Below, in pieces: positions 12,850 through 42,161 of a stretch of DNA of 64,000 nt (position 1 is the first letter of the stretch; every line of letters starts with the position of its first letter). The notes under the pieces are model-generated. The model saw only the letters and a program-made list of their open reading frames with translations. It made no database searches and was not told the DNA's origin. The translations under genes and the position numbers were made by a program. The stretch comes from Deltaproteobacteria bacterium. Lineage in GTDB: Bacteria > Desulfobacterota > Desulfobacteria > Desulfobacterales > JAHEIW01. The stretch covers positions 976-64,975 of the forward strand of contig JAHEIW010000011.1 of NCBI GenBank assembly GCA_024639185.1. Reading direction: 5' to 3'.

Positions 12850-13956
12850 TTATTTTTTGTTTTTATCATTTTTTGCCAATTGGTCAGGGGCAAAAGATCC
12901 GCGGACAACCTTATTCCTTCCGGAATTTTTTGCATCGTAAAGGTATTGGTCTGCCATCTCGATGAGGTCCTCCGAAGATAAATCCTCCCAAGTCGCGTTT
13001 TTGTCAATACCGGTTATCCCAAAACTGACGGTAATGGAAACCTCCTGCCCTTCCCAGCTAAAATTCTTTTTTGCAATTTGCTTGCGGAGTCTTTCTGCCA
13101 GACGGCTCGCATTCTTGTAGCTGGTCTCAGGCAAAACCAGCAAAAACTCTTCCCCACCATAACGCGCCAGCCAGTCCATATCGGAACGGATCAGCGACAG
13201 GATGTGCTGCACAAATTCCTTGAGGACCATATCACCGCATAAATGACCGAACGTATCGTTGACGCGCTTGAAATGGTCAAGGTCACACAAAGCGACAGAG
13301 AGCGGGTGATGATAACGTGAGGCCCTTTTAATTTCATGTTGCAGGTGTTCATTCAGGTAGCCGCGATTGTAGCAGCCGGTCAGGGAATCTTTTCTGGATA
13401 AAAGCCGTATTTCACCATTGGCCTTTTCCAGTGACTTGTGCTTGCGCTTCAAACGTTCATACAGCAGGGTATTTTCCAGTACCAGTGAGTACTGTTTGGC
13501 CAGCATGGTCAGAAGCTTTATGTTCTCCTGTGTGATGAAGCTTTCTTTAATGGGTGTCTTAATCATGACCACCCCCAGCGTTCGTTTGATGGTGGAAAGC
13601 GGCAACATGACAATTGATTTGCCGTCTTCAAATGCCAGTGCGGGTATGAGCGCGGGCTGCCTGCGATTGATGATCCAGGAAAATATGCCGCATTCAATTT
13701 GATAATCGACTTCTTGTCTGCAGATTTTTTTGCGATCATCGGGTTCGACATATTCTAAAATAAATTCATGGGAATTGTCATCAACCACAAACAACGCGCA
13801 AACCTCAATCTCAATTAAACTGCGCACATCTTCCAGAAACACTTCCCATATCTGCCCGATGGTGGCCGGAAAATCGATCCGGTCCTGAAACTGCCCCATG
13901 TGCTCTATTTTATCAATGAGTTCCAACAGCGCTATTCTTTGTTCTGACATGTCCAC
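12850..13956 (-). CDS. GAF-domain diguanylate cyclase (GGDEF)
   Basis: N-terminal GAF-like region. C-terminal GGDEF domain with an intact GGEEF (RYGGEEFLLVL). Confidence 0.88.
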   Translation of the reverse strand: MDMSEQRIALLELIDKIEHMGQFQDRIDFPATIGQIWEVFLEDVRSLIEIEVCALFVVDDNSHEFILEYVEPDDRKKICRQEVDYQIECGIFSWIINRRQPALIPALAFEDGKSIVMLPLSTIKRTLGVVMIKTPIKESFITQENIKLLTMLAKQYSLVLENTLLYERLKRKHKSLEKANGEIRLLSRKDSLTGCYNRGYLNEHLQHEIKRASRYHHPLSVALCDLDHFKRVNDTFGHLCGDMVLKEFVQHILSLIRSDMDWLARYGGEEFLLVLPETSYKNASRLAERLRKQIAKKNFSWEGQEVSITVSFGITGIDKNATWEDLSSEDLIEMADQYLYDAKNSGRNKVVRGSFAPDQLAKNDKNKK

Positions 13957-14185: not shown

Positions 14186-14914
14186 ATGAGCAACAAGCAG
14201 AAAGTAACCTTATTCATTCAGTGTCTGGTGGATACGCATTATCCCGAGGTGGCCGAGGCCATGGTGCGCGTATTGCAGCGACTGGGGATTTCCTTAACCT
14301 GTCCGGGTGATCAAACCTGCTGCGGGCAGCCGGCGTTCAATTCCGGTTATCGCCGCCAGGCGCTGATTGCCGCCAAGCATTTTATTGACGTGTTTAAAGA
14401 TGCGGACACCATTGTCTGTCCCTCAGGCTCATGTGTGAACATGGTGCGGCATCATTATGCGCAGCTGTTTCAAAACGAGCCCCAATGGTTACCCCGCGCC
14501 TTGAATATGGCACGGCGCACATTTGAATTTAGCGAATACCTTGTGGACGTGCTCGACGTTGATGATCTGGGGGCGCACTTTGATGCGCGGGTAACCTATC
14601 ATGATTCCTGCCATTTGATGCGGGGCATCGGTGTCAGGCATCAGCCGCGAACGCTATTGCAGCATGTAGACGGTATCGATTTTATTGAAATGTACAATTC
14701 GGATTATTGCTGCGGATTTGGCGGAACTTTTTCCGTTAAATATCCTGATATTTCAGATGGCATGGTCAGCGATAAGGTTCAAAACATACTGGATACTGAT
14801 GCCAATGCCGTGGTGGGCTGTGATATGGGCTGTCTGATGAACATCCAGGGTAAGCTCAGCCGCCTGGGCTCTTCCATCAAAGTGATGCACCTGGCGCAAA
14901 TCCTTGCCTCTTAG
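14186..14914 (+). CDS. lutA: lactate utilization protein A, (Fe-S)-binding CCG-domain oxidoreductase
   Basis: Two CCG motifs (CCG...C, CCGFGG). Followed by lutB and lutC. Confidence 0.88.
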   Translation: MSNKQKVTLFIQCLVDTHYPEVAEAMVRVLQRLGISLTCPGDQTCCGQPAFNSGYRRQALIAAKHFIDVFKDADTIVCPSGSCVNMVRHHYAQLFQNEPQWLPRALNMARRTFEFSEYLVDVLDVDDLGAHFDARVTYHDSCHLMRGIGVRHQPRTLLQHVDGIDFIEMYNSDYCCGFGGTFSVKYPDISDGMVSDKVQNILDTDANAVVGCDMGCLMNIQGKLSRLGSSIKVMHLAQILAS

Positions 14915-14950
14915 TGCTGCTTTGAATGTGGAGAGGCTAATGACTAATTT

Positions 14951-15015
14951 ATCACGAAAGCACGAAAATACCCAAAATACGAAAAAATTGATTTCGTGCT
15001 TTTGTGGTTTTTTTT
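14951..15015 (+). terminator. intrinsic-terminator-like hairpin between lutA and lutB
   Basis: A ~15-bp stem, atcacgaaagcacgaaa / tttcgtgcttttgtggt with one G-U pair, is followed by eight T (15008-15015). Confidence 0.7.
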
Positions 15016-15051
15016 AAATTTTCTTCATCAATTCCGTCTAAAAAAATTAAA

Positions 15052-16479
15052 ATGACAAAAATAACAACTGAAAATTACGTGCCTGAGGCCAGAAAGGCCA
15101 TTAAAAATCCGGTCCTGCAAAAGGCGCTGGCGGATTTACAGAACCGTTTCGGCCGCGGCACGGCCGAATGTTACCGTCGCTTGCCGGAGGGGCCCGATCT
15201 GCGTTTAAAAGCCCATGAGATCCGGATGAAAACCATTGAAAACCTGGATGTTGTGCTGGAAACCCTGGCCGCCAACATCCGCAAAAACGGCGGTCATGTG
15301 TATTTTGCCAAAGACAGCCAGGCGGCGGTGAATTATTGCCTGAAAGTTGCCCGGCAACACCAGGTCAAACACGTGGTTAAGGGCAAATCCATGGTGAGCG
15401 AAGAGATCGGTTTAAACGATGCCCTTGTCGATGCCGGCATTGAGGTTTCTGAAACGGATCTGGGCGAGTATATCATCCAGTTGGCCGCTGAGACGCCTTC
15501 TCATATCATTGCGCCGGCCATCCACAAAACGCGCCATGATGTTGGCAGCCTGTTTGCCGAAAAGCTGGATATCCCCTACGAGGATGATCCACCCAAATTG
15601 ACCTGGATTGCCAGAAAGGCTTTGCGGCAAAAATTTCTGGCGGCGGATATGGGCACTTCCGGTTGCAATATTGCCTGTGCCGAAACCGGACACATCACAA
15701 CCGTTTCAAACGAAGGCAATATCCGCATGTCAACCACCCTGCCAAAAGTCCACATGGCGTTCATGGGCATGGAGCGTGTTGCCGCCCGTCTGGAAGATCA
15801 CGATATTCTTTTAAGGCTTCTGTGCCGGGGGGCTGCGGCCCAAAATATGGCCACCTACGTCAGCTATATTGGCGGCCCCCGCCAGGCGGATCAGGCCGAT
15901 GGGCCCCGGGAGTTTCACCTGGTTATTCTGGATAACGGGCGCAGCCGGATTCTGGCCGATCCTGAATTTCGCGAGATGCTATGCTGCATCCGGTGTGCGG
16001 CCTGCCTGAATGTGTGCCCGGTTTATGCCAAGATTGGCGGGCATTCCTACGGATACGCCTATACCGGACCGGTAGGCGCGGTGGTCACACCTTTGCTGGT
16101 GGGGATTAATCGCGCCAAGGACCTGTGTCAGGGGGAGACCCTGTGCGGTGCCTGCCAGGTTGCCTGTGCCGTCAATATCGATCTGCCGCGCATGCTGCTG
16201 GCCTTGCGGGAAAAACTGGCCGAAGGTGATCCGGCCTGGCAGGTAAATCCGGCAGATCGTAAGGAAAGACTTTTATGGCAGGCCTGGTCCTGGATCATCC
16301 GCAATCGGTCTGTTTACGACCTTGCCCTGCGATTAGCGGCTGTGGGACAAAAACTGATGCCGCAGCGAAACGGTATGATCCGCCGCCTGCCGCCGCCGGT
16401 CAATGGCTGGACGCAGGGGCGGGATTTAAAGCCGTTGGCCAATCAAAGCTTTATACGACGCTGGAAAAAAGGCCTTTAG
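15052..16479 (+). CDS. lutB: lactate utilization protein B, 4Fe-4S ferredoxin-type / LUD-domain protein
   Basis: Two ferredoxin-type Cys clusters (CIRCAACLNVCP, CGACQVAC) and typical LutB length. ATG at 15052 preferred because the track start at 15004 lies inside the terminator hairpin. Confidence 0.88.
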   Translation: MTKITTENYVPEARKAIKNPVLQKALADLQNRFGRGTAECYRRLPEGPDLRLKAHEIRMKTIENLDVVLETLAANIRKNGGHVYFAKDSQAAVNYCLKVARQHQVKHVVKGKSMVSEEIGLNDALVDAGIEVSETDLGEYIIQLAAETPSHIIAPAIHKTRHDVGSLFAEKLDIPYEDDPPKLTWIARKALRQKFLAADMGTSGCNIACAETGHITTVSNEGNIRMSTTLPKVHMAFMGMERVAARLEDHDILLRLLCRGAAAQNMATYVSYIGGPRQADQADGPREFHLVILDNGRSRILADPEFREMLCCIRCAACLNVCPVYAKIGGHSYGYAYTGPVGAVVTPLLVGINRAKDLCQGETLCGACQVACAVNIDLPRMLLALREKLAEGDPAWQVNPADRKERLLWQAWSWIIRNRSVYDLALRLAAVGQKLMPQRNGMIRRLPPPVNGWTQGRDLKPLANQSFIRRWKKGL

Positions 16480-16549
16480 AATGGTGATCGAAGAGATGAA
16501 CAACAATGGATAGCGGGCATATCATTTTCCGATAGAAAGTTCGAATGAA

Positions 16550-17308
16550 ATGAGAGATTCAGGACAAGAACCGTTTATAAATACCGTCAAAAAGGCTTTG
16601 GGAAAATCGCAGGCTGCATCCGGCAGTCAGGCCGATTTGTTTGGCGGTGATATGTCCGCTGAAAGCCGGGCGATATTAGAGCGCATTCAAAACCGCAGTG
16701 CGGTGGAGCGCAAAAGACTGCTCGACACCTTAATTAAAGCCGCCGGTCCCATCAACCTGAAAGTAATTCCCTGTGACGGCATCAACACCGTAACCGATGC
16801 CATCGCGGCATTGGTCCGGGCAAAAGATCCCGAATGGGGTGAGCAAAAACGGGTCGTGGCCTGGGCCCACCCGCTGATTGAACGCCTGAGCCTGCCGGCT
16901 GCTTTGGCCGAACAAAATGTAGGTTTGTTTGTCACCGAGTCGAAAAATACCACGGAAAAAGACATCCGACAGCAGGTTGTCGATGCTTACATAGGTGTGA
17001 CCTCGGCCGATTTTTGCATGGCTGACACTGCCACTGTGGTGATGCGGGCCCGGCCCGGCCATGCGCGTATCGTATCGCTGGTGCCGGCTATTCATATCGC
17101 TGTCATTAAGCTCGATCAGATCGTTGCCGATTTAAAAGAGCTCTACGCCCTGCTTAAATGGGACCCGCATGAGCGGCTGCAGGGCTTATCCAATTGTCTG
17201 ACGTTTATATCCGGCCCCAGTAAGACCGCCGATATCGAAGCCACCATGGTGCATGGCGCCCATGGCCCGCGGGAAGTCCACCTTTTTGTGATTACCGCCC
17301 ATGATTGA
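16550..17308 (+). CDS. lutC: lactate utilization protein C (LUD domain)
   Basis: Sits after lutAB. LUD-domain-like C-terminal region (SGPSKTADIE...). Confidence 0.75.
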   Translation: MRDSGQEPFINTVKKALGKSQAASGSQADLFGGDMSAESRAILERIQNRSAVERKRLLDTLIKAAGPINLKVIPCDGINTVTDAIAALVRAKDPEWGEQKRVVAWAHPLIERLSLPAALAEQNVGLFVTESKNTTEKDIRQQVVDAYIGVTSADFCMADTATVVMRARPGHARIVSLVPAIHIAVIKLDQIVADLKELYALLKWDPHERLQGLSNCLTFISGPSKTADIEATMVHGAHGPREVHLFVITAHD

Positions 17309-17716
17309 TCCTAAGACCCGTCAGATCACCGAAAAAAATTCGCATCCTTTTTTCGGAACAGTATGATGACAAGCGGTATAACGTATGGCCGCCAGAATTT
17401 GATCGGCTTGATTGCGGCTTCCTGCAGAAGTTAAACACCGATATATAAATTCAAAAAAACTATTTTGTGTGCCTTGAAATTGACACCCATTTGCTTCGTT
17501 CCTATCTTCCCCGCATGCCTTTAGAAAACAATACTTGAATAGAATTCATTAATGTACACATATTAATCTAAAGTTTGACCTTTTGGAAAGTCCGCCCAGT
17601 GAACGTATCTGTGGATTTTGACAATAGCAGGATGTTGGGAAGAAGATTGAGTCGGGAAGACAGTCAAGCTTTGTGCAAGAAGTTGTTCTAATCTAACTCT
17701 TTTTGGAGGCACAAAA

Positions 17717-20173
17717 TTGCGACGCGAAGATGTGGTTGAGATCAGTATCGATGGTCCCGTCAGCCGTAAATCCCGGCGCGGGCACTTCTTGCGGGTGGCC
17801 GGCCCGATCGGATTTGTTATTGTCATGCTGGCGGCCTTGCTGGCGATTACGGCATATTCTCAGTACAGCAATCGCCGCGGCACAAGGGTGCTTTCGGATG
17901 ATTTGCTGGGGGCGATTGAAAGACGTATCAGCAGTGAGCTCAAGGCCTTTTTTGAGCCGATTAGAGATACCGCCCGACTAACGGCTGACTTTTTCAATCG
18001 TATTTCCTTTGACGTGCACAACCGGGAATTTATAGAGCCAATTGCTTTCAGGGTGCTGGATAACCTTCCCCAGGTCAGCAATTTCATAGTGGCTGATCCC
18101 CGGGGTAATTTTTTGATGATCAGCCGGATGCCGGACGGATCCATGCACACTAAAACTATTGCGCGCACGCCGGAGGCGACCCGGGTTACCTGGATCCGTC
18201 GGGACACGACCGGCAAGGTGATTGCCAGGGAAATATCCACAGATGATTCCTACGATCCGCGCAATCGGCCCTGGTATACGGAGGCGGTGGCCAGCCGCGA
18301 TGTGCGCTGGTCGGATTTCTATATTTTTTTTACCAGTCAAGCACATGGTACAACCATCTCTATGCCGATTCTCGGGGAAGCCGACCAACTTCAGGGTGTC
18401 TTTGGGCTGGATATCGAATTAAAGGTAATCAGCGCATTTCTTCAAACATTGAAAATTGGCCAGCAGGGTGAGGCCATCATTGTTGACGAAGACGGCTACA
18501 TCGTTGCCCATCCGGAAATTGAAAAAGCGATAAAAAAAGACGGCGATCGGTACAGGCCGATTCGGGTTGAAGAATTGGGAAATCAGATTTTGAACCGCGC
18601 CTACAACCGCTTCCGCATCGATGGGCACGGCCGGCGCGATCTGACCATTGCGGGTAAGCGTTATCTGAGTTCTGCTTTTGCGCTTCCCCGCAAAACAGGC
18701 GGAAATTTAACGGTATTTATTTTCGTGCCGGAAGAGGACTTTGTCGGCTTTGTGTCACGTAACAACCGTGCCATGTTACTGATGTCCACCGGCATCGTTG
18801 CTTTAGCAGCCCTGATGGCCGGGCTGCTGGTTTTCCAGGGCCTGCGGGCGGAGCGCAACGCCCAGCTGGTGCTCGATCGCCAGGATGAACTCGAGGCCCA
18901 GAGCCGGGCTTTCTCCGAACTATCATCCACAGCTGCCCTGTTTGATGCCGAAAATACCGATTCCTTCAGAAAGTTGACCGAGATTGTCACCGATGCGGTC
19001 AGCCTGAGACGCACCAGTGTGTGGCATTTCGATGATAACGGCCAATTTTTGCGGTGCGTCGACAGTTATGATCGCGAGAGCAATGGCCATACAGAGGGGA
19101 CCGTGCTGGCGCGGGCAGATTTTGTGCCGTTCTTTGACATGTTGCAGAACGGTGAAGTTATCAGGGCCGAGGACGCTGAAAATGATAGTCACGTGGCCGA
19201 GCTGTACCGGGTGTACCTGCAACCGCTGGGCTGTGAATCATTGTTGGCGGTACCGATTCGGTATCGCGGTCAGACACCAGGGGCCCTGTGGTTCGAGCAT
19301 GATCGACAGCGCGACGGCTGGTCGAGCGAAGAAATCTCCTTTGCGCATGCCATTGCCGACATGCTGGCGCTTCGGTTGTCAGTGGATCCGGAATGCATCC
19401 GTGCATTTACTCAACCGGAAGAAGATACCGGAACTGCAGAGGCACCCGGTGCCCTATCGCCGGAACCAGCTGCGGTTGCCGGAGACATTCGAGCCGAGGA
19501 ACCTCCTATTGCATCCGATACCGCCCAGCAACGGTCGAGCCCGAATTCGACGGGCAGAAAAACGCCCGTCATCTCGTTTTTGGATCGTCTAAAAGCCGGG
19601 GGTATCGACCCCGATCAAACCGCTGCGGATATCTTCCCAGATATGACAGTTCTGGTCCTGCAATTTACCGACACCATATCCCTTGCCGGGCGTATGACGG
19701 ATACCGAGTCAACAACGACGGTTGATCAAATGGTCGGTCACCTGGAAGATCTGGTCACAGCCCGGGGCATCGACTACATGAAGGTGATGGGGGAGGAAAT
19801 CGTCTGTGCGGCGGGATTTGACGCTGGATCTGAAGGACATGCCGTTCTGATCGCTGACCTGGCACTCGGGATCCAGAATCACTGTGCCGGCCTGTTTGCA
19901 TCGCTAAACGCAGCCATGGAATTCCGGATCGGGATCGACACCGGGGCTGTTTTGGGCAGTTCGGTGGGTCGTAAAGCAAAAACATATAATATATGGGGCG
20001 AGTCGGTTCGTTTTGCATCCAAGATGGCAGATTCCGGAATACCCGGTGGCATTCAGGTGTCGGAAACCACCTATCGTCGTCTGCGCGCCCATTACCTGTT
20101 TAAATTGCGCGGCCGCTATTATTTGCCCAACATCGGTGAAACCTCAACCTATTTTCTGACAGGACAAATATGA
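17717..20173 (+). CDS. membrane sensor protein: Cache-like periplasmic domain, TM, GAF, class III cyclase-homology domain (non-canonical catalytic residues)
   Basis: 818 aa. TTG start preceded by GGAGG. Two TM segments flank a ~300-aa Cache-like region. GAF region (...LLAVPIRYRGQTPGALWFEH). The C-terminal CHD has FTD, MKVMGEE and WGESVRFASK at the conserved motif positions. Confidence 0.8.
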   Translation: MRREDVVEISIDGPVSRKSRRGHFLRVAGPIGFVIVMLAALLAITAYSQYSNRRGTRVLSDDLLGAIERRISSELKAFFEPIRDTARLTADFFNRISFDVHNREFIEPIAFRVLDNLPQVSNFIVADPRGNFLMISRMPDGSMHTKTIARTPEATRVTWIRRDTTGKVIAREISTDDSYDPRNRPWYTEAVASRDVRWSDFYIFFTSQAHGTTISMPILGEADQLQGVFGLDIELKVISAFLQTLKIGQQGEAIIVDEDGYIVAHPEIEKAIKKDGDRYRPIRVEELGNQILNRAYNRFRIDGHGRRDLTIAGKRYLSSAFALPRKTGGNLTVFIFVPEEDFVGFVSRNNRAMLLMSTGIVALAALMAGLLVFQGLRAERNAQLVLDRQDELEAQSRAFSELSSTAALFDAENTDSFRKLTEIVTDAVSLRRTSVWHFDDNGQFLRCVDSYDRESNGHTEGTVLARADFVPFFDMLQNGEVIRAEDAENDSHVAELYRVYLQPLGCESLLAVPIRYRGQTPGALWFEHDRQRDGWSSEEISFAHAIADMLALRLSVDPECIRAFTQPEEDTGTAEAPGALSPEPAAVAGDIRAEEPPIASDTAQQRSSPNSTGRKTPVISFLDRLKAGGIDPDQTAADIFPDMTVLVLQFTDTISLAGRMTDTESTTTVDQMVGHLEDLVTARGIDYMKVMGEEIVCAAGFDAGSEGHAVLIADLALGIQNHCAGLFASLNAAMEFRIGIDTGAVLGSSVGRKAKTYNIWGESVRFASKMADSGIPGGIQVSETTYRRLRAHYLFKLRGRYYLPNIGETSTYFLTGQI

Positions 20174-21012
20174 ACGACGAAGGCGTTATATCAGGAAAAA
20201 ACGGCACATCGCATGCGGGATCGATGCTGAGGCGCTTGCTAGCAATCATCGGAAAATGGACGATTGGCTTCTGGCAATGGCCGGTTCTATTTATCAGCGA
20301 TGCCGTTGCCGTCATCTGGCAAAGTTTACGCCCGATTACCTGGCGACGGTCGATCCGCGCCGAGTTTTTGCGTCAGTGTCAGCAGGTGGGCGCACAGGCG
20401 TTGCCCTTTATTCTGGTTGCCGGCGTTTTTGTGGGATTTGGCCTGGTCGCACAGGCTTATCACTGGCTCACCGTCTTCGGCAGCACCCGATTGTTCGGCG
20501 GATTTCTGTCGGCAATACTCGTACGTGAAATAGCGCCGGTGCTGGTGGGCCTGATTGTGATCGGGCGCAGCGGCTCGACCCTGCTGGTCGAATTGGGTAC
20601 CATGAAGACCGCAGGCCAGGTCCACATGCTGGATGCCCAGGGCATCGATCCATTCCTGTATCTCGTGGTGCCGCGGGTGCTGGCATTCAGCATTTGTATG
20701 TTTTCATTGACGACGGCTTTTGTGGCCGTGGCGCTCTTAGCGGGCTTTTTTTCAGGTGTGCTGATCGGCATCACCCAATTTTATTTTTTCGATTTTCTCG
20801 GCCGCGCGATCGGCTCAATGGGTTGGCAAACATATGTGTTGTTCGCGTTAAAGACGGTTACCATTGGCTTTGCAATTGCGCTGATATCATGCAGGACGGC
20901 CGTGTCGCTAACCGGCGTCTCGGCCAACGTACTGGATATCATGCCGCGAGGCTTTGCCCTATCGGCGTTGGCGACGTTAATCATTTCGATAGCTCTGACA
21001 ATTTTATTCTAG
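20170..21012 (+). CDS. mlaE: MlaE-family ABC transporter permease
   Basis: MlaE/YrbE signature region (REIAPVLVGLIVIGRSGSTLLVELGTMK...Q..ML...GIDP). ATGA overlap with the cyclase stop. Confidence 0.88.
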   Translation: MNDEGVISGKNGTSHAGSMLRRLLAIIGKWTIGFWQWPVLFISDAVAVIWQSLRPITWRRSIRAEFLRQCQQVGAQALPFILVAGVFVGFGLVAQAYHWLTVFGSTRLFGGFLSAILVREIAPVLVGLIVIGRSGSTLLVELGTMKTAGQVHMLDAQGIDPFLYLVVPRVLAFSICMFSLTTAFVAVALLAGFFSGVLIGITQFYFFDFLGRAIGSMGWQTYVLFALKTVTIGFAIALISCRTAVSLTGVSANVLDIMPRGFALSALATLIISIALTILF

Positions 21013-21028
21013 CAATGGGTAAGTTGTA

Positions 21029-21736
21029 ATGACAGCAACAGTTAAACGGGAGCGCGTGATTCTGCAATTCGATGATACCGTTTTCACAGACACATCCGGG
21101 GCTGTCGCTCAGTCCGATGAAGTCAGCCTGAGTGCCTGCGCTGGCGATCTGATCTTGATCCGTCTGGCCCGTCTGGACCAAACAACAGGCCTGGCAGATG
21201 CATGCGCCGGAATCCTGAGGCCAAGCCGCGGTGCCGTCCGTTTTCTGGGACGCAACTGGCCGGAGCTGACACCGGACCAGGCCAATGCGCTGCGGGGTCG
21301 GATCGGTCGTGTTTTTAAGACCGGCAATTGGGTTAGTCACTTATCGGTCATGGATAATATATTGCTTCACCAGCGACACCATACCCGCCGATCTGTCCAG
21401 CGGCTGTGCGAGGAGGCCGGGGAGCTGTCACAGAAATTTGGCCTTCCCGGGCTTTCTTTAGAGCTGCCCGGGGATTGTACCGCAGGCGACCTGAGGCGCG
21501 CGGCCTGTGTGCGGGCATTTCTGGGTCGGCCCCTGCTGATCCTGCTGGAAGAACCCACAAGCGGCATTTTCCTCGAGGTGATATCTGCATTGATGGGCGC
21601 CATTCGCGATGCACGTGATCGCGGGGCCGCAGTCATCTGGCTGACACAAAAAGGTTTAATCTGGAAAGATCAAACGCTGCCGGTAACCAGACGCTATCGA
21701 TTAATCGCCGGGAGGTTGATGGAGGTGACACCGTGA
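21029..21736 (+). CDS. MlaF-like ABC ATPase homologue with degenerate nucleotide-binding motifs
   Basis: Collinear with ABC ATPases. The Walker A position reads RLARLDQTT, the signature position CTAGDL, Walker B LLILLEEP, and the H-loop position TQK. Confidence 0.65.
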   Translation: MTATVKRERVILQFDDTVFTDTSGAVAQSDEVSLSACAGDLILIRLARLDQTTGLADACAGILRPSRGAVRFLGRNWPELTPDQANALRGRIGRVFKTGNWVSHLSVMDNILLHQRHHTRRSVQRLCEEAGELSQKFGLPGLSLELPGDCTAGDLRRAACVRAFLGRPLLILLEEPTSGIFLEVISALMGAIRDARDRGAAVIWLTQKGLIWKDQTLPVTRRYRLIAGRLMEVTP

Positions 21737-22779
21737 AAGAGATGCTGCCGCAACCGAAATTTCGTTATACCAATGAAACGGTCGGATTGTTTGTGCTAAT
21801 CTTCGTAATGATTTTTATCGCCGGGCTATTATACTCCGGTCAGGTCCGCAAATGGTTCAATCCCGGTGAAACGCTCAAGGTTGTTTTGCCCGATGAAGGC
21901 CTTTTTGGTCTGGCGAAAGGATCGCCAGTCGAAATTCTGGGAACCAAAGCGGGGGAAGTCACGGATATTGTCATCAATCCCGACGAAAAGATACATGCGA
22001 ATGTACGCATTGATAGTGACATGGCGGTATTTGTACGCAGCGATTCAAAAGCTTCCATTCTCAAGACATTCGGCATCGCCGGTGATGCCTATCTTGAAAT
22101 TACACGGGGCAGCGGGGCCGAGCTGGATTGGGAATTTGCGGTCCTTACCGTCGAATTGGATCGCAGTACATCCGACACTCTGGCTGAGTTAATCGATAAT
22201 CTGCGGGAAAAGGTTTTGCCGGTTGTCGATGATGCCCATGAAGCGATCCTTGTCTTGACGGCAGTGGTAAGGGATCTGCAGCACGATGAAAAGGGCGTCC
22301 AGAATTTGCTGGCGAATCTGAATTCCATCGCCGATAAGATCGACAGCGGAGAGGGGACTATCGGGCGCCTGCTGACTGAAGATAAGCTTGTAAGAAACTT
22401 AGAAGACCTGGTTGCGCGTGTAGCAAAGCTTTTTGACGATTTGAAGGAAACGGTTCAAAACGTTGCAGCGTATTCAGTTGAATTTGATAATGAAACCGGC
22501 GATATCCCTCAAATTACGCGCAGTCTGAAAAAGACCATGGCGTCAATGGAAATCGTGATGAAAGACCTTAGCAAAGCAACGCCACAGCTGCCGAAGATTG
22601 TCGAAAATGTCGGCGACACTGCGGATAGCGTCCCGATCCTCGTTTTGCAACTGCAACAGGTGATGGTCGAAATGGAGCGTTTGATCCAGCAATTGCAGTC
22701 TCACTGGCTGCTGGGGGGTGGCTCCCGCCAGCCGTCACAGGCGGATAGCCGAATATCACCGCTGGAGGTAAACCCATGA
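21733..22779 (+). CDS. mlaD: MlaD/MCE-domain protein
   Basis: N-terminal TM anchor, then an MCE domain (LFGLAKGSPVEILGTKAGEVTDI...), then a long helical C-terminus. 4-nt overlap with the upstream gene. Confidence 0.85.
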   Translation: MKEMLPQPKFRYTNETVGLFVLIFVMIFIAGLLYSGQVRKWFNPGETLKVVLPDEGLFGLAKGSPVEILGTKAGEVTDIVINPDEKIHANVRIDSDMAVFVRSDSKASILKTFGIAGDAYLEITRGSGAELDWEFAVLTVELDRSTSDTLAELIDNLREKVLPVVDDAHEAILVLTAVVRDLQHDEKGVQNLLANLNSIADKIDSGEGTIGRLLTEDKLVRNLEDLVARVAKLFDDLKETVQNVAAYSVEFDNETGDIPQITRSLKKTMASMEIVMKDLSKATPQLPKIVENVGDTADSVPILVLQLQQVMVEMERLIQQLQSHWLLGGGSRQPSQADSRISPLEVNP

Positions 22780-23702
22780 GGTGTTATCTGCGTTTGATTT
22801 ATGGGATGGGATTTATCGGCTTGCTGATGGCAGTTGCTGTTTTGACGCTGAGCGGTTGCGGGTCTTCACCACCGAAGCAAAAAGGTCCGGCCCCCGATAA
22901 AGAGCTGCAGCGGTTTAACAGCGCTGCGCGACAGGCCTTTGATAAGAGTCGCTTCGAGCAAGCTGCCAACTTTTACCGTAAGGCACTGGAGCGTGCATAC
23001 GTGCGCGATGATACAGCCGCAATTCTGGATGCCCAGTATAATCTGGCAGTTTGTTTGCTGAACCTGCAATCCTATGATGAGGCGCTTGAAGTGGTCCGGT
23101 GCGCCAACACCGAAATGGCGTTAGCGGATCACGGCAAATCGGTCGATTTTTTGCTTTTGGAAGCCACCGTCCTTCACAGGGGCGGGGATCTGAACGCCGC
23201 CTGGCAGGCGACCGATCAAATTTTATCCATTCCGTCACAATCCTCTTCAATTATTAAAAGCAAAACCCATTTTCTGCGGGGCTTGATGGCCAGCGAACAG
23301 GAGGACCTGGATCAGTTGCGTGTGGAGATTACCGCCTTAGGGCAACCAGAGCAATCACGGCTGCGGGCCGATTATCAGGAGCTGGTCGGGCGTCTGGCCA
23401 TGGCCGGACAAAACTGGGATGCTGCTATTGATGCATTTGACAACGCAACGAACCTGCGCCGTGAAATGCTAGATTATCGGGGTATGGTGAGGGTCGTCGT
23501 CCTGGCGGGCGAAGCCAGTCAAAAGGCGGGGCGCACGCGGGAGGCTGCCATTTATTATCTGAGAGCCGGCCGAAGCGCTTTTTGGCAGGACCAGTTTGAT
23601 GATGCCCGCCAATGGCTGAATGAGTCCATCCAGCTGGCTACCAGCGCCAATGAAGATCAAATCATCGAGGAGGCCCGCAGCCTTTTGCGGCAAAATCATT
23701 AA
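22776..23702 (+). CDS. TPR-repeat lipoprotein
   Basis: Lipobox LTLSGC. Several TPR-like helical repeats (AANFYRKALERAY..., YNLAVCLLNLQSYDEAL). 4-nt overlap with mlaD. Confidence 0.7.
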   Translation: MRCYLRLIYGMGFIGLLMAVAVLTLSGCGSSPPKQKGPAPDKELQRFNSAARQAFDKSRFEQAANFYRKALERAYVRDDTAAILDAQYNLAVCLLNLQSYDEALEVVRCANTEMALADHGKSVDFLLLEATVLHRGGDLNAAWQATDQILSIPSQSSSIIKSKTHFLRGLMASEQEDLDQLRVEITALGQPEQSRLRADYQELVGRLAMAGQNWDAAIDAFDNATNLRREMLDYRGMVRVVVLAGEASQKAGRTREAAIYYLRAGRSAFWQDQFDDARQWLNESIQLATSANEDQIIEEARSLLRQNH

Positions 23703-23927
23703 AAGGTTTAATTTTTGAGTTGATCCCTGCTCTGAAGCAAGCAGGATGCTTCGGCTGTATTTCAGGCGCCTAAGCATCAAAAACACCAGGACCGCAATGA
23801 TTGCCGTGGCAGCCATCACCAAAAACGGCAATCCGGTGCCGTTGGGCGCCATCGACCCCGCCCAGGCGTACGGTATGACTAAAAAGAATAGTGTCAGGGT
23901 GATGAAGACACCCGGCCAACAAAACAT
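23469..23927 (-). CDS. possible small two-TM membrane protein (doubtful)
   Basis: The first ~60 codons encode two clean hydrophobic helices. The remaining ~234 nt overlap the 3-prime end of the convergent TPR gene, so the real extent and existence are uncertain. Confidence 0.25.
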   Translation of the reverse strand: MFCWPGVFITLTLFFLVIPYAWAGSMAPNGTGLPFLVMAATAIIAVLVFLMLRRLKYSRSILLASEQGSTQKLNLLMILPQKAAGLLDDLIFIGAGSQLDGLIQPLAGIIKLVLPKSASAGSQIINGSLPRAPRLLTGFARQDDDPHHTPII

Positions 23928-24178
23928 CGGTCACCTCTCACATAAAATATTGATTTTATACTAATTTTTCATATAAGATATTGCATTCATCATTACAAGT
24001 CGATTATATTCTGACGTGAAGCACCCTCATAAATAGTAGATCATGTGATCTGGTTTGTCAGCCTCCCGCGGGGCGTTGCCTGTTCGAAAATACGTGATGT
24101 CTGATGATATCGTTTATGCAACGGGCTAACTGGCTGGCGGGCAACACGCTCAACCAGTTTATAACCGGAGTTTCTGCC

Positions 24179-25327
24179 ATGAACAAAGAAGCGATCAATA
24201 AATGGGTGTTGCTGCTGCTGGTTTTTTTTATCTCGGCTCTTTTTTTGTCAATGATCCGCCAGTTTCTGATGGCCATTTTTCTGGCCGGCATTTTTTCAGC
24301 TCTATCCTATGCGCTGTATCGACGCTTTGAAAGCTGGTTCGGCGGACGCCGTGCTTTAGCTTCAATAGTGACCCTTTTGCTAATTGTTGTTGTCGTTATT
24401 ATACCACTTGGGGCCTTGTTAGGAATTGTTATCGATCAGGCGTTCAAGGTGGGCCAAGCCGCCACGCCCTGGGTGGCTGAGCGACTCTCCCAGCCGGATG
24501 AGATCACCGAAGCCTTAAAATCCCTTCCATTTTATGATCGCATCGAACCTTACCGCAATCTGATCCTGACCAAGGCCGGTGAGTTGGTCGGCCATATCAG
24601 CGGCTTCTTAATTAACCGTCTGCGATCATATGCCCTGGGAACGGTCAATTTCATTTTTATGCTGTTCATTATGCTGTATACCATGTTCTTTTTTCTTATG
24701 GACGGCGATAAGCTGATCGAGAAAATTCTGTATTATTTGCCGCTGGAGGACCAGGATGAGCGCCGCATGTTGAACAAGTTCACTTCGGTCACGCGTGCGA
24801 CGCTCAAAGGTACCGCGGTCATCGGCATCCTGCAGGGCACCCTGGCCGGTGCGGCATTTGCGGTGGTGGGCATTGACAGCGCGGTGTTCTGGGGCACCAT
24901 CATGGCGGTACTTTCCTTTATCCCGGGCATCGGTACGGCGCTGGTGTGGGTGCCGGCGGTGATCATTCTGGCCGCCACCGGACACTTTGCCAAGGCCATC
25001 GGGCTGGGTGTGTTCTGTGCGGCGGTGGTGGGCAGCATCGATAACCTGCTGCGCCCCATTCTGGTGGGTCGCGACACCCAGATGCACGAGCTGATGATTC
25101 TTTTTGGAACCCTGGGCGGTATTATCATGTTCGGTGTGGTGGGCATCATCATCGGCCCGATCGTGGCAGCCTTGTTTGTCACGGTCTGGGAAATATATGG
25201 GGCGGCATTTCAGGATATATTACCTTCTGTGGGAATCTCTACGCTTGAGGGTAAATCCAAGAATTCAAATGGGGAGTTGCTTCCCGATGATTTCGACACT
25301 GAAGCAGATGCTCCGCCGGAATCTTAG
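24179..25327 (+). CDS. AI-2E family transporter (PerM/YhhT, UPF0118)
   Basis: Eight predicted TM helices with typical AI-2E family sequence (...LRPILVGRDTQMHEL...). ATG at 24179 (MNKEAINKW) preferred. Confidence 0.85.
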   Translation: MNKEAINKWVLLLLVFFISALFLSMIRQFLMAIFLAGIFSALSYALYRRFESWFGGRRALASIVTLLLIVVVVIIPLGALLGIVIDQAFKVGQAATPWVAERLSQPDEITEALKSLPFYDRIEPYRNLILTKAGELVGHISGFLINRLRSYALGTVNFIFMLFIMLYTMFFFLMDGDKLIEKILYYLPLEDQDERRMLNKFTSVTRATLKGTAVIGILQGTLAGAAFAVVGIDSAVFWGTIMAVLSFIPGIGTALVWVPAVIILAATGHFAKAIGLGVFCAAVVGSIDNLLRPILVGRDTQMHELMILFGTLGGIIMFGVVGIIIGPIVAALFVTVWEIYGAAFQDILPSVGISTLEGKSKNSNGELLPDDFDTEADAPPES

Positions 25328-38816: not shown

Positions 38817-41800
38817 CTATTTTTTTAGCAGCTGTTCGAGAACATTTTGCACGCCTTTTTGCAGTGATTTTTGAAGCGCCTGTTCGGCCAGGCTGCTAGA
38901 GGCCTGCTGCACGGCACCTTTGTTGATGTCCGGATTGGACGAATTACCGCGGATGGGAACGTCGATGGTAACCCCTTCAAGATAGGTATAAGCTCTATCG
39001 CCGACCAGCTTGGGGGTGATCGGAATTTTGGCGACATAGTCAAGGCTTTTGTCAAAGCCCACCGAGCCGTGTAAGGCAATTGGGTACCCGTCGATTTCCA
39101 GCCGGATGGGGGAGGTTTCAATGCGGCCGTTGCGGGCCACAAATTCGATGTCCAAATCGCCGAAATCCATTTCATTTCCACGGACACCCATCAGCGCAAG
39201 AATACCGGTAAGCATTTTGGTGGAATTGATACGCACGCCTCTTAGACTCAGGGTTCCGGCAAAATCCGTTTTGTCGCGGTCCTTGTTGTCCAGCGGCCAG
39301 TTGAAACGCTGCATATGCAGGTCAACCTGCCCTTCCGCCTGCACCGAGCCCTGAAAAACCGGGTGAAGCTTAGACATTAGCTGCTCGGCGATAGCGTCTG
39401 TTATTTCAACATCCTTTAAAATATAGCTGTCCTGGGGCAGCGTGAGCATGTAGGGTTCTTTTTGCAAATGCAGAGTCGGCTCCAGGTTGAGTTGACCGCC
39501 ATTGGCGGTTGCAGCCAATTTGGCCAGGGCCGATTCGTTTGCCACCCGGATGGGGATTTCGGTGGCTGAGATACCCAGACCGAAAGCGTTGATTGAGTCT
39601 GCGCGAATGGCGCCGCTAAAATCCGTTTGCCTGAGTGAATCCGTCCAGCGCTTGCCGCCTGAGACCATTTTGAGTTGAAAAGGGTTCTCGCCTCTGCCAG
39701 TTATGGTAATCTGCCGGGGTCCGGCTATTTTCTCCAGGAAGGGCGAAAGCATCTTCAGGTCCAGGTTGATGCTGCCGGCGGCATCCAGCTTATTGCGACC
39801 ACCGGTCTGGTCCAGATTACCCGCCGCTGAGAGCGACAGCGGGGTCGAATTGAGTTGAATGTTTTCGATTGTTAGAACCGATCCGTCCGGTTTGCGCTTT
39901 AAATCGGCGGTCAGTTTAACACGGTCTTCGGCAATCGGGGGCAGGGTATCGGATGTCATTTGAAAAGGGGAAAGGTCGGCACGAACTTTTAAAAACTGTG
40001 CGCTCGGGGATGAAAAATCGACATCAAGATCAACTTTGCCTTTACCGGCCACGCGTGTTTTTTCCGGCAGCTCGATAAAATCCCCATAGGCCTTGAATAG
40101 TTTCGCCAGGTCAAGATCTGCCTGCGCCCGGGTTTTCATGTCGTTTTGAAAGTTCGACCAATCATTGACCGCCAAGCGGGGAACAGTGATCGTGCCCGCC
40201 GAGCTGTTGATATTCATCGGGGCCAGATCGACGGACCGAGCGACAAAATTGAGTTTGCCCTCGGTTTGCACGGTCAGGCGTTCTTCGCTGATTTGTTTTT
40301 GCCCCGCACGGTATTTGAAATTACGGGCGTCGACGCGGGTGCTGTTGAGGGTTAACTGTCGGTCAGCGAGTGTGCCGCTGGTCTTAAGGTGAGCGTTGCC
40401 CGCCAGTCTATTGGTAGCCGGGAGTATTTTAAAATTGCGCAGCACATCTGAAATCTGTTGCAAATTGAATCCAGCGTCAATAGCAAGATTCCGGACCGAG
40501 GGAAAATCGCTGCTATCGGCCAGCTGAAAGCGGTCGGCCCTGAAATTGCCTTTGGCCAGGGTCGATTGAACGCTTAAATTAAGCTGTTGAAATTCGCTGG
40601 CGCTGAAATTCGCTGCTCGGCGGATGGTGGTCTTTAAGTCAGCCTTGGCATCCTGTTGGGGAAGGATCGTGCGGCCGTTGCGGCTTAAAGCCAGGCTGCG
40701 GGTATCCAGATTCAGCAACGCGTCATTTATGCCGGGTGCGGTTTCCTTGATATCAACCCTGGCAAACAGTTTTCCGGAAGCATCCCATTCCTTGATGTCG
40801 ACAAATTTTTTAAATTCCCTCAGGGCGACTGCCAGATCTGCTGAGAGGGTACCTTTCATATTGGCCAGATCGCCCTGGCCGTCGGCATTGATAAATGCCG
40901 AGCGCAACGACAGCTTGGCCAGTTGAATTCCGTCCGGGCGTTTTTCTCCGCGGGCCTTCAATGAAATAGGCTGATTCCAGCTGATGGGTTTGCCGCTGCT
41001 GGCGCCCTTTATACGGTCGATTCTGGCGCTGGTGTCAAATGCGGTGACCGTTTCCGTGGTGTTAACATTATACGACAGCAATAAAGTGCCTTCAGACAGG
41101 TTTGTGTCCTGGCGTAAATTTAAGGTTTGCGGCATCTGGGAAAAAAGCTCGGCCAGATTGATGCTGGCCGAACCGCTTAATTTATTATCACCCTGATCGG
41201 AGGCGCTGCCCTGGGCAGTTCCCTGGGCCACCGAAGATTTAAAGCTCAATTGTTTTAGCGACAGACTGCCCCGGCTGATGTTTGCGTCCAACTCCGTGGC
41301 GATATCTTTGAATCGGGGATGATCCGTTTTAAGGGGACCACCCCAGAGCTCGAGTCGACTCACGGACAAATTGCCCTTGAGGTTTAAGGCCTCTGCTGAG
41401 CTGCCCTTTACGTTCAGGTCGGCATTGATTCGCCCTTTACCATGGGGGTAGTTGCCCTGTGAGGCCAGAATAGCCAGCGTATCCTCGAGTTCCCAGTTGG
41501 AGACTTTCAAGCTGGCATCGGATTGGATGGCGTTCAGATCAAGGGGGTTGTCTGCAGACAGGGTCAGGGTGCCTTCACCGGAAAAACGACCGATGCTGTC
41601 ACCGGAGGTCAGCAAAACACGATAGATGATGGGCTTTTCGATATCCGAGACGTCCAGAAACAGATCAAGATCTTTGACCACCGTTTTTTCATCACCTTTA
41701 AGGTTCACTGTGCGGATGGTGCCGTCGGTAATTTTAAGGATGCCAGCTATGGCCGGCAGCCCTGCCGCCTGTGAAGGTTCGCCTGTTTTTGATGGTTTCC

Positions 41801-42161
41801 GCCGCTGGTTGTCTGTTAGATAAAATAAGACCTGCGGTTTAATGACCTCCACGCCACCCAGGTTGCGGGCGTTGGCCATCAGCTGAACCAGTCCTCGATA
41901 TCCCTTTATTTCAGCAACTTCGATAAAAATATGTTCTTCCTGGTGGTCGTAAATGATGCCTTTGGCTTCAATACCGCTAAACCATTTAAAGCGCCATTGC
42001 GCGACCTGTAGTTTTCCGGGCAACCGCTCGTTGACCGCCTGCAGAATTCGTGGTTTGAGCGCTTCGCTGGACAGGACGGCCGGCAGAAACACCAGGCCCG
42101 TGAAAATCATAAAAAATACGGCAACTACGGTTCCGAGTAGTATCGGTTTTGTTTTCATCAT
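38817..42161 (-). CDS. AsmA-family / TamB-like large envelope protein
   Basis: 1114 aa. Single N-terminal TM anchor. Very long beta-rich, low-complexity body. AsmA-like C-terminal region. Confidence 0.75.
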   Translation of the reverse strand: MMKTKPILLGTVVAVFFMIFTGLVFLPAVLSSEALKPRILQAVNERLPGKLQVAQWRFKWFSGIEAKGIIYDHQEEHIFIEVAEIKGYRGLVQLMANARNLGGVEVIKPQVLFYLTDNQRRKPSKTGEPSQAAGLPAIAGILKITDGTIRTVNLKGDEKTVVKDLDLFLDVSDIEKPIIYRVLLTSGDSIGRFSGEGTLTLSADNPLDLNAIQSDASLKVSNWELEDTLAILASQGNYPHGKGRINADLNVKGSSAEALNLKGNLSVSRLELWGGPLKTDHPRFKDIATELDANISRGSLSLKQLSFKSSVAQGTAQGSASDQGDNKLSGSASINLAELFSQMPQTLNLRQDTNLSEGTLLLSYNVNTTETVTAFDTSARIDRIKGASSGKPISWNQPISLKARGEKRPDGIQLAKLSLRSAFINADGQGDLANMKGTLSADLAVALREFKKFVDIKEWDASGKLFARVDIKETAPGINDALLNLDTRSLALSRNGRTILPQQDAKADLKTTIRRAANFSASEFQQLNLSVQSTLAKGNFRADRFQLADSSDFPSVRNLAIDAGFNLQQISDVLRNFKILPATNRLAGNAHLKTSGTLADRQLTLNSTRVDARNFKYRAGQKQISEERLTVQTEGKLNFVARSVDLAPMNINSSAGTITVPRLAVNDWSNFQNDMKTRAQADLDLAKLFKAYGDFIELPEKTRVAGKGKVDLDVDFSSPSAQFLKVRADLSPFQMTSDTLPPIAEDRVKLTADLKRKPDGSVLTIENIQLNSTPLSLSAAGNLDQTGGRNKLDAAGSINLDLKMLSPFLEKIAGPRQITITGRGENPFQLKMVSGGKRWTDSLRQTDFSGAIRADSINAFGLGISATEIPIRVANESALAKLAATANGGQLNLEPTLHLQKEPYMLTLPQDSYILKDVEITDAIAEQLMSKLHPVFQGSVQAEGQVDLHMQRFNWPLDNKDRDKTDFAGTLSLRGVRINSTKMLTGILALMGVRGNEMDFGDLDIEFVARNGRIETSPIRLEIDGYPIALHGSVGFDKSLDYVAKIPITPKLVGDRAYTYLEGVTIDVPIRGNSSNPDINKGAVQQASSSLAEQALQKSLQKGVQNVLEQLLKK

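Follow-up and report, generated by a model that had tools for sequence, protein, structure and literature searches.

A compact operon of five genes was analysed in a DNA stretch of 64,000 nucleotides (nt) from a Deltaproteobacteria bacterium of the order Desulfobacterales (GenBank assembly GCA_024639185.1, contig JAHEIW010000011.1, positions 976 to 64,975 of the forward strand). The whole stretch is called the window here, and all coordinates are window coordinates. The operon encodes, in this order, a membrane sensor with a dCache_1, a GAF and a cyclase-homology domain (CHD), an MlaE-type permease, a relative of the nucleotide-binding domains (NBDs) of ATP-binding cassette (ABC) transporters that has no P-loop and is named psF (pseudo-MlaF) in this work, a long MlaD/MCE protein, and a TPR lipoprotein (Table 1). 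The five + strand open reading frames (ORFs) fill positions 17717-23702 exactly, according to the ORF list and the translation. Direct reading of the junctions shows an ATGA overlap of the sensor and MlaE genes (20170-20173) and a 16-nt gap between the MlaE and psF genes (21013-21028). The psF and MlaD genes overlap in GTGA (21733-21736), the MlaD and TPR genes in ATGA (22776-22779), and both overlaps have GGAGG upstream. ORFs, junctions and Pfam matches confirm the tight packing that an earlier reading of the letters (the sequence-only reading) had described.

Pfam and hydropathy place a first transmembrane (TM) segment of the sensor at residues ~22-51, the periplasmic dCache_1 domain at 95-320, a second TM segment at ~351-378, the GAF domain at 417-554, a linker at ~556-640 and the CHD at 643-815. 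None of the five proteins has a family of its own in the NCBIfam collection, where all matches are far below the cutoffs. Moreover, STAS/MlaB, MlaC and MlaA domains were found neither in the five proteins nor in the immediate neighbours, which bears out the earlier remark that MlaB and MlaC are not recognisable here.

Table 1. Features of the five-gene operon and its borders (window coordinates)
Feature	Position	Strand	Basis and remarks
Promoter-like site, TTGACA-17-TATCTT	17480-17508	+	In the 408-nt gap 3' of lutC; best sigma-70-like match of the region, 10/12
Membrane sensor, dCache_1-GAF-CHD, 818 amino acids (aa)	17717-20173	+	ORF and Pfam; TTG start, GGAGG 8 nt upstream
dCache_1 domain with complete AA_motif (Y, R, W, Y, D)	17999-18676	+	Pfam, 75.6 bits; gapless alignment to PctA
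Cytoplasmic GAF domain	18965-19378	+	Pfam, 54.6 bits
CHD with degenerate catalytic residues, predicted pseudo-cyclase	19643-20161	+	Guanylate_cyc (PF00211), 89.2 bits; alignment to solved cyclases
MlaE-type permease, 280 aa	20170-21012	+	PF02405, 142.8 bits (cutoff 22.5)
psF, NBD-like, P-loop-less, soluble, 235 aa	21029-21736	+	Partial ABC_tran match; MlaF chains are the best solved relatives
Long MlaD/MCE protein, 348 aa	21733-22779	+	PF02470, 43.7 bits; GTG start
TPR lipoprotein, 308 aa	22776-23702	+	Several TPR families; signal peptide, lipobox LSG-C
Weak terminator-like hairpin	23732-23754	+	Consensus scan only; 30 nt past the TPR stop

Conservation of the five-gene module

One genome per species (185,579 species) was scanned with the psF family alignment, which gave 161 relatives, and the best 80 loci were taken with 10-kb flanks. 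All ORFs of these loci, which are cited by L numbers below, were compared with the five window proteins, the Cache, GAF and CHD parts of the sensor being taken separately. Every locus with both flanks readable (56 of 56) contains all five parts. Of the 65 loci with enough upstream sequence, 60 have the Cache-GAF-CHD gene directly upstream in the same orientation, and three more have a convergent downstream CHD gene. The genes for MlaD and the TPR lipoprotein are present wherever there is downstream room (68/68 loci). The carriers belong to Desulfobacterales, Alphaproteobacteria (Acetobacter, Gluconacetobacter, Asaia, Ameyamaea, Lichenicoccus, Plastoroseomonas, Stellaceae, Geminicoccaceae and Kiloniellales), Chromatiaceae and other Gammaproteobacteria, Burkholderiales and Planctomycetota, and there is one metagenome-assembled genome of 'Candidatus Acidoferrum' (Acidobacteriota). 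Metagenomic contigs with 67-68% identical proteins carry this five-gene set with matching overlaps, and both the gene order and the 4-nt overlaps recur in relatives down to ~40% identity, for example in Acetobacter cibinongensis (L052). Chance falls far short of accounting for this arrangement. In relatives from several phyla the sensor is syntenic with the Mla genes, the condition on which the sequence-only reading had staked its proposal.

In the 6-kb flanks of all loci no sixth conserved gene was found: generic PAS/kinase proteins occur in at most 16 loci, and lutABC only in close relatives. Since no other flanking gene is kept beyond close relatives, the module consists of exactly these five genes.

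The CHD gene does not always stand at the head of the module. A separate psF clade comprises six loci (L035, L036, L045, L049 from Piscinibacter sakaiensis 201-F6, L055 and L075), and the four of them with enough downstream sequence have no upstream sensor. They carry a gene for a soluble Guanylate_cyc protein of 363-411 aa, convergent with the module and just after the TPR gene. This partner, called type B here, is a GAF-CHD protein in L036, L049 and L055, and an HNOBA-like helix followed by a CHD in L075. The partnership with a CHD thus outlives both a change of gene order and the loss of the Cache domain and TM segments, which is strong evidence for a functional link between the CHD protein and the Mla-like genes. 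The sequence-only reading had suggested a stoichiometric or regulatory partnership between sensor and transporter. Such a partnership with the envelope complex is still the best reading, as the GAF-CHD partner is kept despite the reordering; the picture of an ABC transporter controlled by a locally made cyclic nucleotide appears to be wrong, as described below.

Every part of the module is under purifying selection, with ratios of nonsynonymous to synonymous divergence (dN/dS) of 0.15-0.33; the values are 0.22-0.26 for the sensor and 0.15-0.21 for psF. Within the sensor the CHD evolves most slowly (dN 0.035-0.05, dN/dS 0.16-0.24).

Synonymous divergence is uneven along the module. Relative to L004, dS falls from 1.33 in Cache to 0.22 in the CHD; relative to L012, the CHD has 0.21, but psF 0.94 and MlaE 0.87. 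Recombination within the module, or a mosaic origin, is suggested by these values. In Acetobacter papayae JCM 25143 (L083, 3996-8904) two ORFs stand in place of the sensor gene and two in place of the MlaD gene, and the MlaE protein is shorter, reflecting either frameshifts of the draft assembly or real inactivation in that species.

Two protein families with degenerate catalytic motifs

The match of psF to ABC_tran is weak (30.4 bits) and covers profile positions 27-137 only, with the Walker A part missing. In profile searches the best solved relatives are the MlaF chains 7d06, 6z5u and 6xbd (E ~1e-15), with BceA and MacB slightly behind. Comparison with MlaF shows that each nucleotide-handling motif is altered: Walker A is GPSGTGKTT in MlaF and LARLEQTAA in psF; the Q-loop LFQSG is VFKTG, so that the Gln is lost; the signature LSGGMNRR is LTAADLQR; Walker B IMYDEP is LLEEP, with the Asp replaced; and the H-loop His is Q or R. 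None of the 353 members checked has the Walker A pattern G-x4-GK[ST]; they comprise 83 locus copies, 120 close matches and 150 representatives of the 50%-identity clusters. The corresponding position varies across phyla (THDADRATA, IERQRQGTA, SPTTGQSAA and others), and in most members a DLxR motif stands in for SGGQ. What is kept is an MlaF-like Q-loop/helical-subdomain stretch facing the permease (ALRGRIGRVF..W..L.V.EN), together with the family-specific motifs HHTRR and FGLPG. There are hundreds of psF homologues; the closest 120 are nearly all 235 aa long, and about 311 clusters at 50% identity are found at E<=1e-30. The earlier label 'MlaF-like' is right insofar as MlaF provides the best solved relatives of psF, but not if an ATPase is meant. 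As predicted from its motifs and their conservation, psF is an old, selected, P-loop-less NBD. It is predicted not to be an ATPase, canonical ATP binding and hydrolysis being excluded by the motif loss. Fusions of psF to other proteins, which would be a Rosetta-stone sign of contact with the CHD, are absent among the 150 cluster representatives, all of which are stand-alone proteins of 125-300 aa. AlphaFold2 modelling of psF with an 18-sequence alignment (A1) gave a mean pLDDT, the model's own confidence score, of 37.

The CHD of the sensor shows a similar loss. Class III catalysis depends on two Asp residues for metal binding, on a Lys and an Asp that specify the substrate, and on an Asn and an Arg for the transition state, and both GAF-CHD and Cache-CHD architectures are common among real cyclases. 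The best solved matches of the window CHD are the C2 domains of AC8 and AC5 and mycobacterial Cya (5o5k), with E values down to 2e-25. The aligned block of the 5o5k/AC8/AC5 C2 reference, YDVWGDAVNVASRME, reads YNIWGESVRFASKMA in the window. The first metal Asp is replaced by Q, with an Asp three residues later, and the second by E (KVSGDSYM in the reference, KVMGEEIV in the window). The substrate Lys is kept, while the adenine-specifying Asp is N (YDVWG versus YNIWG), the transition-state Asn is R and the Arg is K (VNVASRME versus VRFASKMA). In a homodimer of the window CHD, both sites would be without Asn and Arg and also without the metal Asps. The catalytic Arg is kept in none of the 75 family CHDs, its position being occupied by K, E, M, A or G. 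The other positions vary freely among the 75 copies, with R/T/Q/K/H for the first Asp, E/D/H for the second and R/H/G/S/Q for the Asn; across the family, most copies have other residues in place of the Asn, the adenine Asp and the metal Asps. The soluble type-B CHDs are nearer to the canonical state, with 150-207 bits and metal Asps often present; the Asn/Arg pair is still missing. The sensor CHD is thus probably not a working cyclase.

The ~85-residue linker between GAF and CHD is rich in Pro, Ala and acidic residues. At this place the type-B proteins have a helical transducer (HNOBA-like match), and in class III cyclases a signalling helix usually precedes the CHD. A long flexible linker, where regulated cyclases have a rigid helix, would suit a docking domain on a tether.

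Sensor input, envelope parts and flanks

The closest solved relatives of the dCache_1 domain are PctA, PctB and PctC. The AA_motif of amino-acid-binding dCache_1 domains (dCache_1AA), with a motif spacing of 13-17 residues, was defined in PMC8915833, and it was reported there that D173N abolished binding in PctA. All five motif residues are found in the window sensor; in the gapless alignment they correspond to PctA Y121, R126, W128, Y144 and D173, with the same spacing. In PctA-type receptors the output is a chemoreceptor or kinase, whereas here it is a GAF-pseudo-CHD unit tied to an Mla-like complex. The domain is a predicted amino-acid-type sensor. Among 66 sensors of the family, the motif reads YRWYD in 37, FRWYD in 19 and YRWYN in 8. 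The YRWYN sensors belong to the Acetobacter group. Asn at the position equivalent to D173 is seen in the acetic-acid-bacteria sensors of L052, L053, L058, L063, L064, L074, L080, L082 and L083 (Acetobacter, Gluconacetobacter, Asaia and Ameyamaea), which may have a different ligand or may have lost sensing.

The MlaE protein has multiple TM segments by hydropathy and is divergent, since TIGR00056 (115.8 bits) and all NCBIfam MlaE models stay below their cutoffs. The MlaD protein consists of a TM segment (~12-39), one MCE domain (~47-128), about 180 helical residues (145-327) and a non-helical conserved C-terminal tail; the helices are taken from the secondary structure of a low-confidence AlphaFold2 model (22-sequence alignment A3, pLDDT 43). 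Precomputed annotation gives a Helical_needle match (PF28544), and the profile matches Mce1B (8fed_B) over residues 57-277 as well as coiled-coil proteins. In the tail, W325, G328, R340 and the terminal P-x-EV-x-P (PLEVxP) are conserved from Desulfobacterales to Acetobacter (alignment A2). The absence of MlaC would be accounted for by an MlaD of the needle type, similar to Brucella MpcD, Mce1 and the MlaD of Veillonella. The lipoprotein is always encoded last in the module. It is of the TPR type, not PqiC-like, and has a weak similarity to the N-terminus of BamD. A lipobox is present by a strict pattern in 62 of 74 homologues, and most of the others are near-matches. The protein is presumed to be the outer-membrane partner of the MlaD needle.

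On the upstream side the operon is flanked by lutABC (14186-17308) and on the downstream side by a + strand AI-2E transporter gene (24104-25327). The neighbouring genes are of an ordinary chromosomal kind and, together with the source names of near-identical proteins, point to an uncultured Desulfobacterales host. The promoter-like site puts a leader of ~200 nt before the sensor start. Its blocks AATTGACAC ... CCTAtcTT are kept in 5 of 6 aligned relatives (alignment A4), and the TTG start and GGAGG of the sensor gene are also kept in relatives. The leader region (17478-17716) contains further conserved blocks common to five relatives, such as GAAGATTGAGTCG at ~17645-17660, and may be a regulatory leader; an Rfam scan of 17200-24200 at E<=1, leader included, gave zero matches. 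In a consensus scan, promoter-like and terminator-like matches inside the operon were no more frequent than in shuffled sequence, and a division of the operon by internal promoters or terminators was rejected because the matches occur at the background rate. The hairpin at 23732-23754 possibly marks the end of the operon.

Several features of the neighbourhood lie outside the module. A - strand ORF (23469-23927) is convergent on the TPR gene and overlaps its end; the first ~55 residues (23760-23927) are strongly hydrophobic, and the ORF may encode a small membrane protein or be spurious. A gene for a GAF-GGDEF diguanylate cyclase stands directly upstream of lutABC in the window (12850-13956, - strand) and also in L001 (1-641, a 68% identical relative). 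This GAF-GGDEF/lutABC synteny is local to Desulfobacterales relatives. In L001, L002 and L003 (12796-17141, - strand) a multi-PAS hybrid histidine kinase of ~1440 aa is encoded between the TPR and AI-2E genes, and some Desulfobacterales relatives have a NorB-like gene after lutC and ahead of the sensor gene. Both insertions are absent in the window, so the flanks of the module are fluid. Elsewhere in the window, a 1114-aa ORF (38817-42161, - strand) has no Pfam family at E<=1e-5.

Relation to known systems and possible function

Comparison with characterised MCE systems may provide some clues regarding the function of the module. The closest one is MpcEFDA of Brucella abortus, a Mla-Pqi chimeric system with an MlaE-type permease, an MlaF homologue, a 331-aa needle MlaD and an outer-membrane lipoprotein, and with neither MlaC nor MlaA (PMC12436622). 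Pull-down showed that its proteins form one complex, which was proposed to bridge the inner and outer membranes (PMC12436622). The window module shares with it a compact operon of permease, NBD, long MlaD (348 aa here) and terminal lipoprotein, and the lack of MlaC. However, MpcF is described as an ABC ATPase, MpcE has an MlaB-like STAS domain, the Mpc lipoprotein is PqiC-like, and there is no sensor or CHD; the window module has an NBD without a P-loop, no STAS domain, a TPR lipoprotein and an obligatory GAF-CHD partner. With MlaFEDB-MlaC-MlaA of Escherichia coli and Acinetobacter baumannii it has in common the MlaE permease, the MCE protein and an NBD-like protein whose nearest relative is MlaF. 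It is without MlaB, MlaC and MlaA, its MlaD is about twice as long, and psF lacks not only the Walker A, signature and H-loop of MlaF but also its C-terminal extension. Mycobacterial Mce1 and Mce4 and the MlaEFD of Veillonella parvula resemble it in MCE proteins whose long C-terminal helices form a periplasm-spanning needle. In contrast, these systems are powered by an active ATPase, either MceG or MlaF, and none of them has a CHD partner; Mce1 is moreover heterohexameric, with numerous accessory proteins.

MCE systems without any ATPase also exist, namely PqiABC and LetAB, and in the former an outer-membrane lipoprotein holds the needle tip (PMC12436622). They are trans-envelope MCE lipid conduits that work without an ABC ATPase, as is proposed here for the window module. 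But they are built from PqiA/LetA membrane proteins and multi-MCE proteins, with no MlaE and no subunit of NBD fold, whereas the window module keeps an ABC architecture that appears catalytically empty. With mammalian adenylyl cyclases, which have degenerate CHDs of the C1/C2 type, and with class III cyclases that have GAF or Cache inputs it shares the CHD fold. LapD-type receptors use a degenerate GGDEF-EAL pair as a nucleotide receptor for inside-out signalling, with conserved dead domains on a periplasmic sensor that control an envelope process. In this case the concept alone is shared, the folds being unrelated and without sequence relationship to the window module. Full-text literature searches found no description of the five-part architecture, of P-loop-less MlaF homologues or of relevant pseudo-cyclases, in agreement with the sequence-only reading, which knew of no such system. 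Because psF lacks the motifs of an ABC ATPase and the CHD lacks the catalytic residues of class III cyclases, the module is filed apart from MlaFEDB. Judged by its sequences, it belongs with the MCE/Mla envelope systems, as an undescribed variant that is conserved in several phyla, and is not a MlaFEDB member.

We tentatively propose, with a probability of about 0.45, that the module is a sensor-gated trans-envelope lipid conduit that works without ATP hydrolysis and is built on two pseudoenzymes. By analogy with MlaFEDB, Mce1 and Brucella Mpc, MlaE would form a dimer in the inner membrane, and the long MlaD a hexameric ring whose helical region projects across the periplasm. The TPR lipoprotein in the outer membrane would probably capture the conserved MlaD tail in its TPR groove. 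On the cytoplasmic side, two copies of psF would present their MlaF-like surface to the permease without canonical use of ATP. The non-catalytic GAF-CHD unit would bind these pseudo-NBDs and, taking over from ATP, determine whether MlaE is open or closed. Lipid would flow down its own gradient through the MlaD conduit, gated by a periplasmic amino-acid-like ligand of the Cache domain and a cytoplasmic ligand of the GAF domain. A sharper version, which we consider doubtful, is that the ABC scaffold has been turned nucleotide-independent, a dead CHD dimer docking on the P-loop-less NBDs to replace ATP, so that the two ligands gate intermembrane lipid flow. The periplasmic ligand might possibly even be an amino-acid lipid head group.

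There are several points that weigh against the proposed conduit. We infer the protein contacts, the lipid binding and the inactivity of the enzymes, and all activity calls rest on motif loss; the contacts of the TPR groove with the MlaD tail and of the CHD with psF are purely conjectural. The AlphaFold2 models of psF and MlaD are too poor for checking fold or pockets. In some type-B CHDs the metal Asps are intact, as is the Lys/Asp pair, and these CHDs might have a weak activity or pair with another CHD. There is also a small chance that, in the window CHD, the Glu at the second metal site and the Asp three residues past the first would allow non-canonical catalysis. Finally, a passive conduit requires a lipid gradient and a reason for gating.

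The same observations may be read in other ways. Rather than moving lipid, the module could be a trans-envelope signalling device, in which the TPR protein, MlaD, MlaE and psF probe the mechanical or lipid state of the outer membrane or periplasm and the GAF-CHD unit reads it, or in which, running inside-out, the GAF/CHD receptor alters the periplasmic assembly; this would be reminiscent of LapD. Both 'enzymes' are degenerate yet conserved, as in receptor-type pseudoenzymes, sensor domains are always part of the module, and the operon contains no energy source. However, no recognisable output domain (kinase, DNA-binding or GGDEF) is present in the module or conserved beside it, and the well-conserved MlaE and MCE domain suggest that a lipid path is still used, so that we consider such a device unlikely. 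It is rather less likely that a canonical ATPase of the MlaF/MceG type encoded elsewhere powers MlaE, with psF as an accessory or regulatory subunit standing in for the missing MlaB. It is established that MceG serves several mycobacterial Mce permeases, and this would be a parallel. But psF retains the stretch that contacts the permease in MlaF, in all loci its gene directly follows that for MlaE with translational linkage, so that psF most simply fills the NBD sites itself, and no canonical MlaF recurs in the 10-kb flanks.

Taken literally, the Pfam domain names describe an active Cache-GAF cyclase whose cyclic nucleotide regulates an ATP-hydrolysing Mla-type ABC transporter. This is close to the nucleotide-gated transporter considered in the sequence-only reading, and the high scores and retained metal Asps of some type-B CHDs speak for it. 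The lack of Walker A in the psF members checked, the missing Arg in 75 of 75 CHDs and the frequent replacement of the Asn and adenine Asp make it improbable; motif loss in psF and the CHD alike disfavours it. That the operon is a decaying remnant on its way to pseudogenes might be suspected from the lost catalytic motifs and from the split sensor and MlaD ORFs in the draft genome of A. papayae. But the ORFs are intact and of conserved length across phyla, translational coupling is conserved, psF has diverged into its ~311 clusters, and the dN/dS values are low for every part, psF and CHD included. Decay has therefore hardly any probability left, and this reading was rejected, being refuted in practice by conservation and dN/dS.

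The psF-type proteins are presently annotated as 'ABC transporter ATP-binding protein', and the CHDs would, by their Pfam domain, be named adenylate or guanylate cyclases. The module thus reveals two large unrecognised families of putative pseudoenzymes, P-loop-less NBDs and Arg-less CHDs. What energises and regulates bacterial MCE/Mla bridges, and which way they carry lipid, is a disputed question, and the module is a natural experiment in this regard: an ABC architecture has been selected in hundreds of lineages with its ATP site gone and a sensor with a predicted dead cyclase always attached. Should a CHD dimer indeed replace ATP, this would be a new control mode for an ABC-type fold and the first ligand-gated intermembrane lipid bridge. 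Cultured hosts allow direct testing, including Acetobacter, Gluconacetobacter, Asaia, Lichenicoccus and Piscinibacter sakaiensis 201-F6. If the complex moves lipid, MlaE/MCE conduits would be workable without ATP hydrolysis and could be gated by ligands; if it moves none, a transporter would have given rise to a new type of sensor that spans the envelope.

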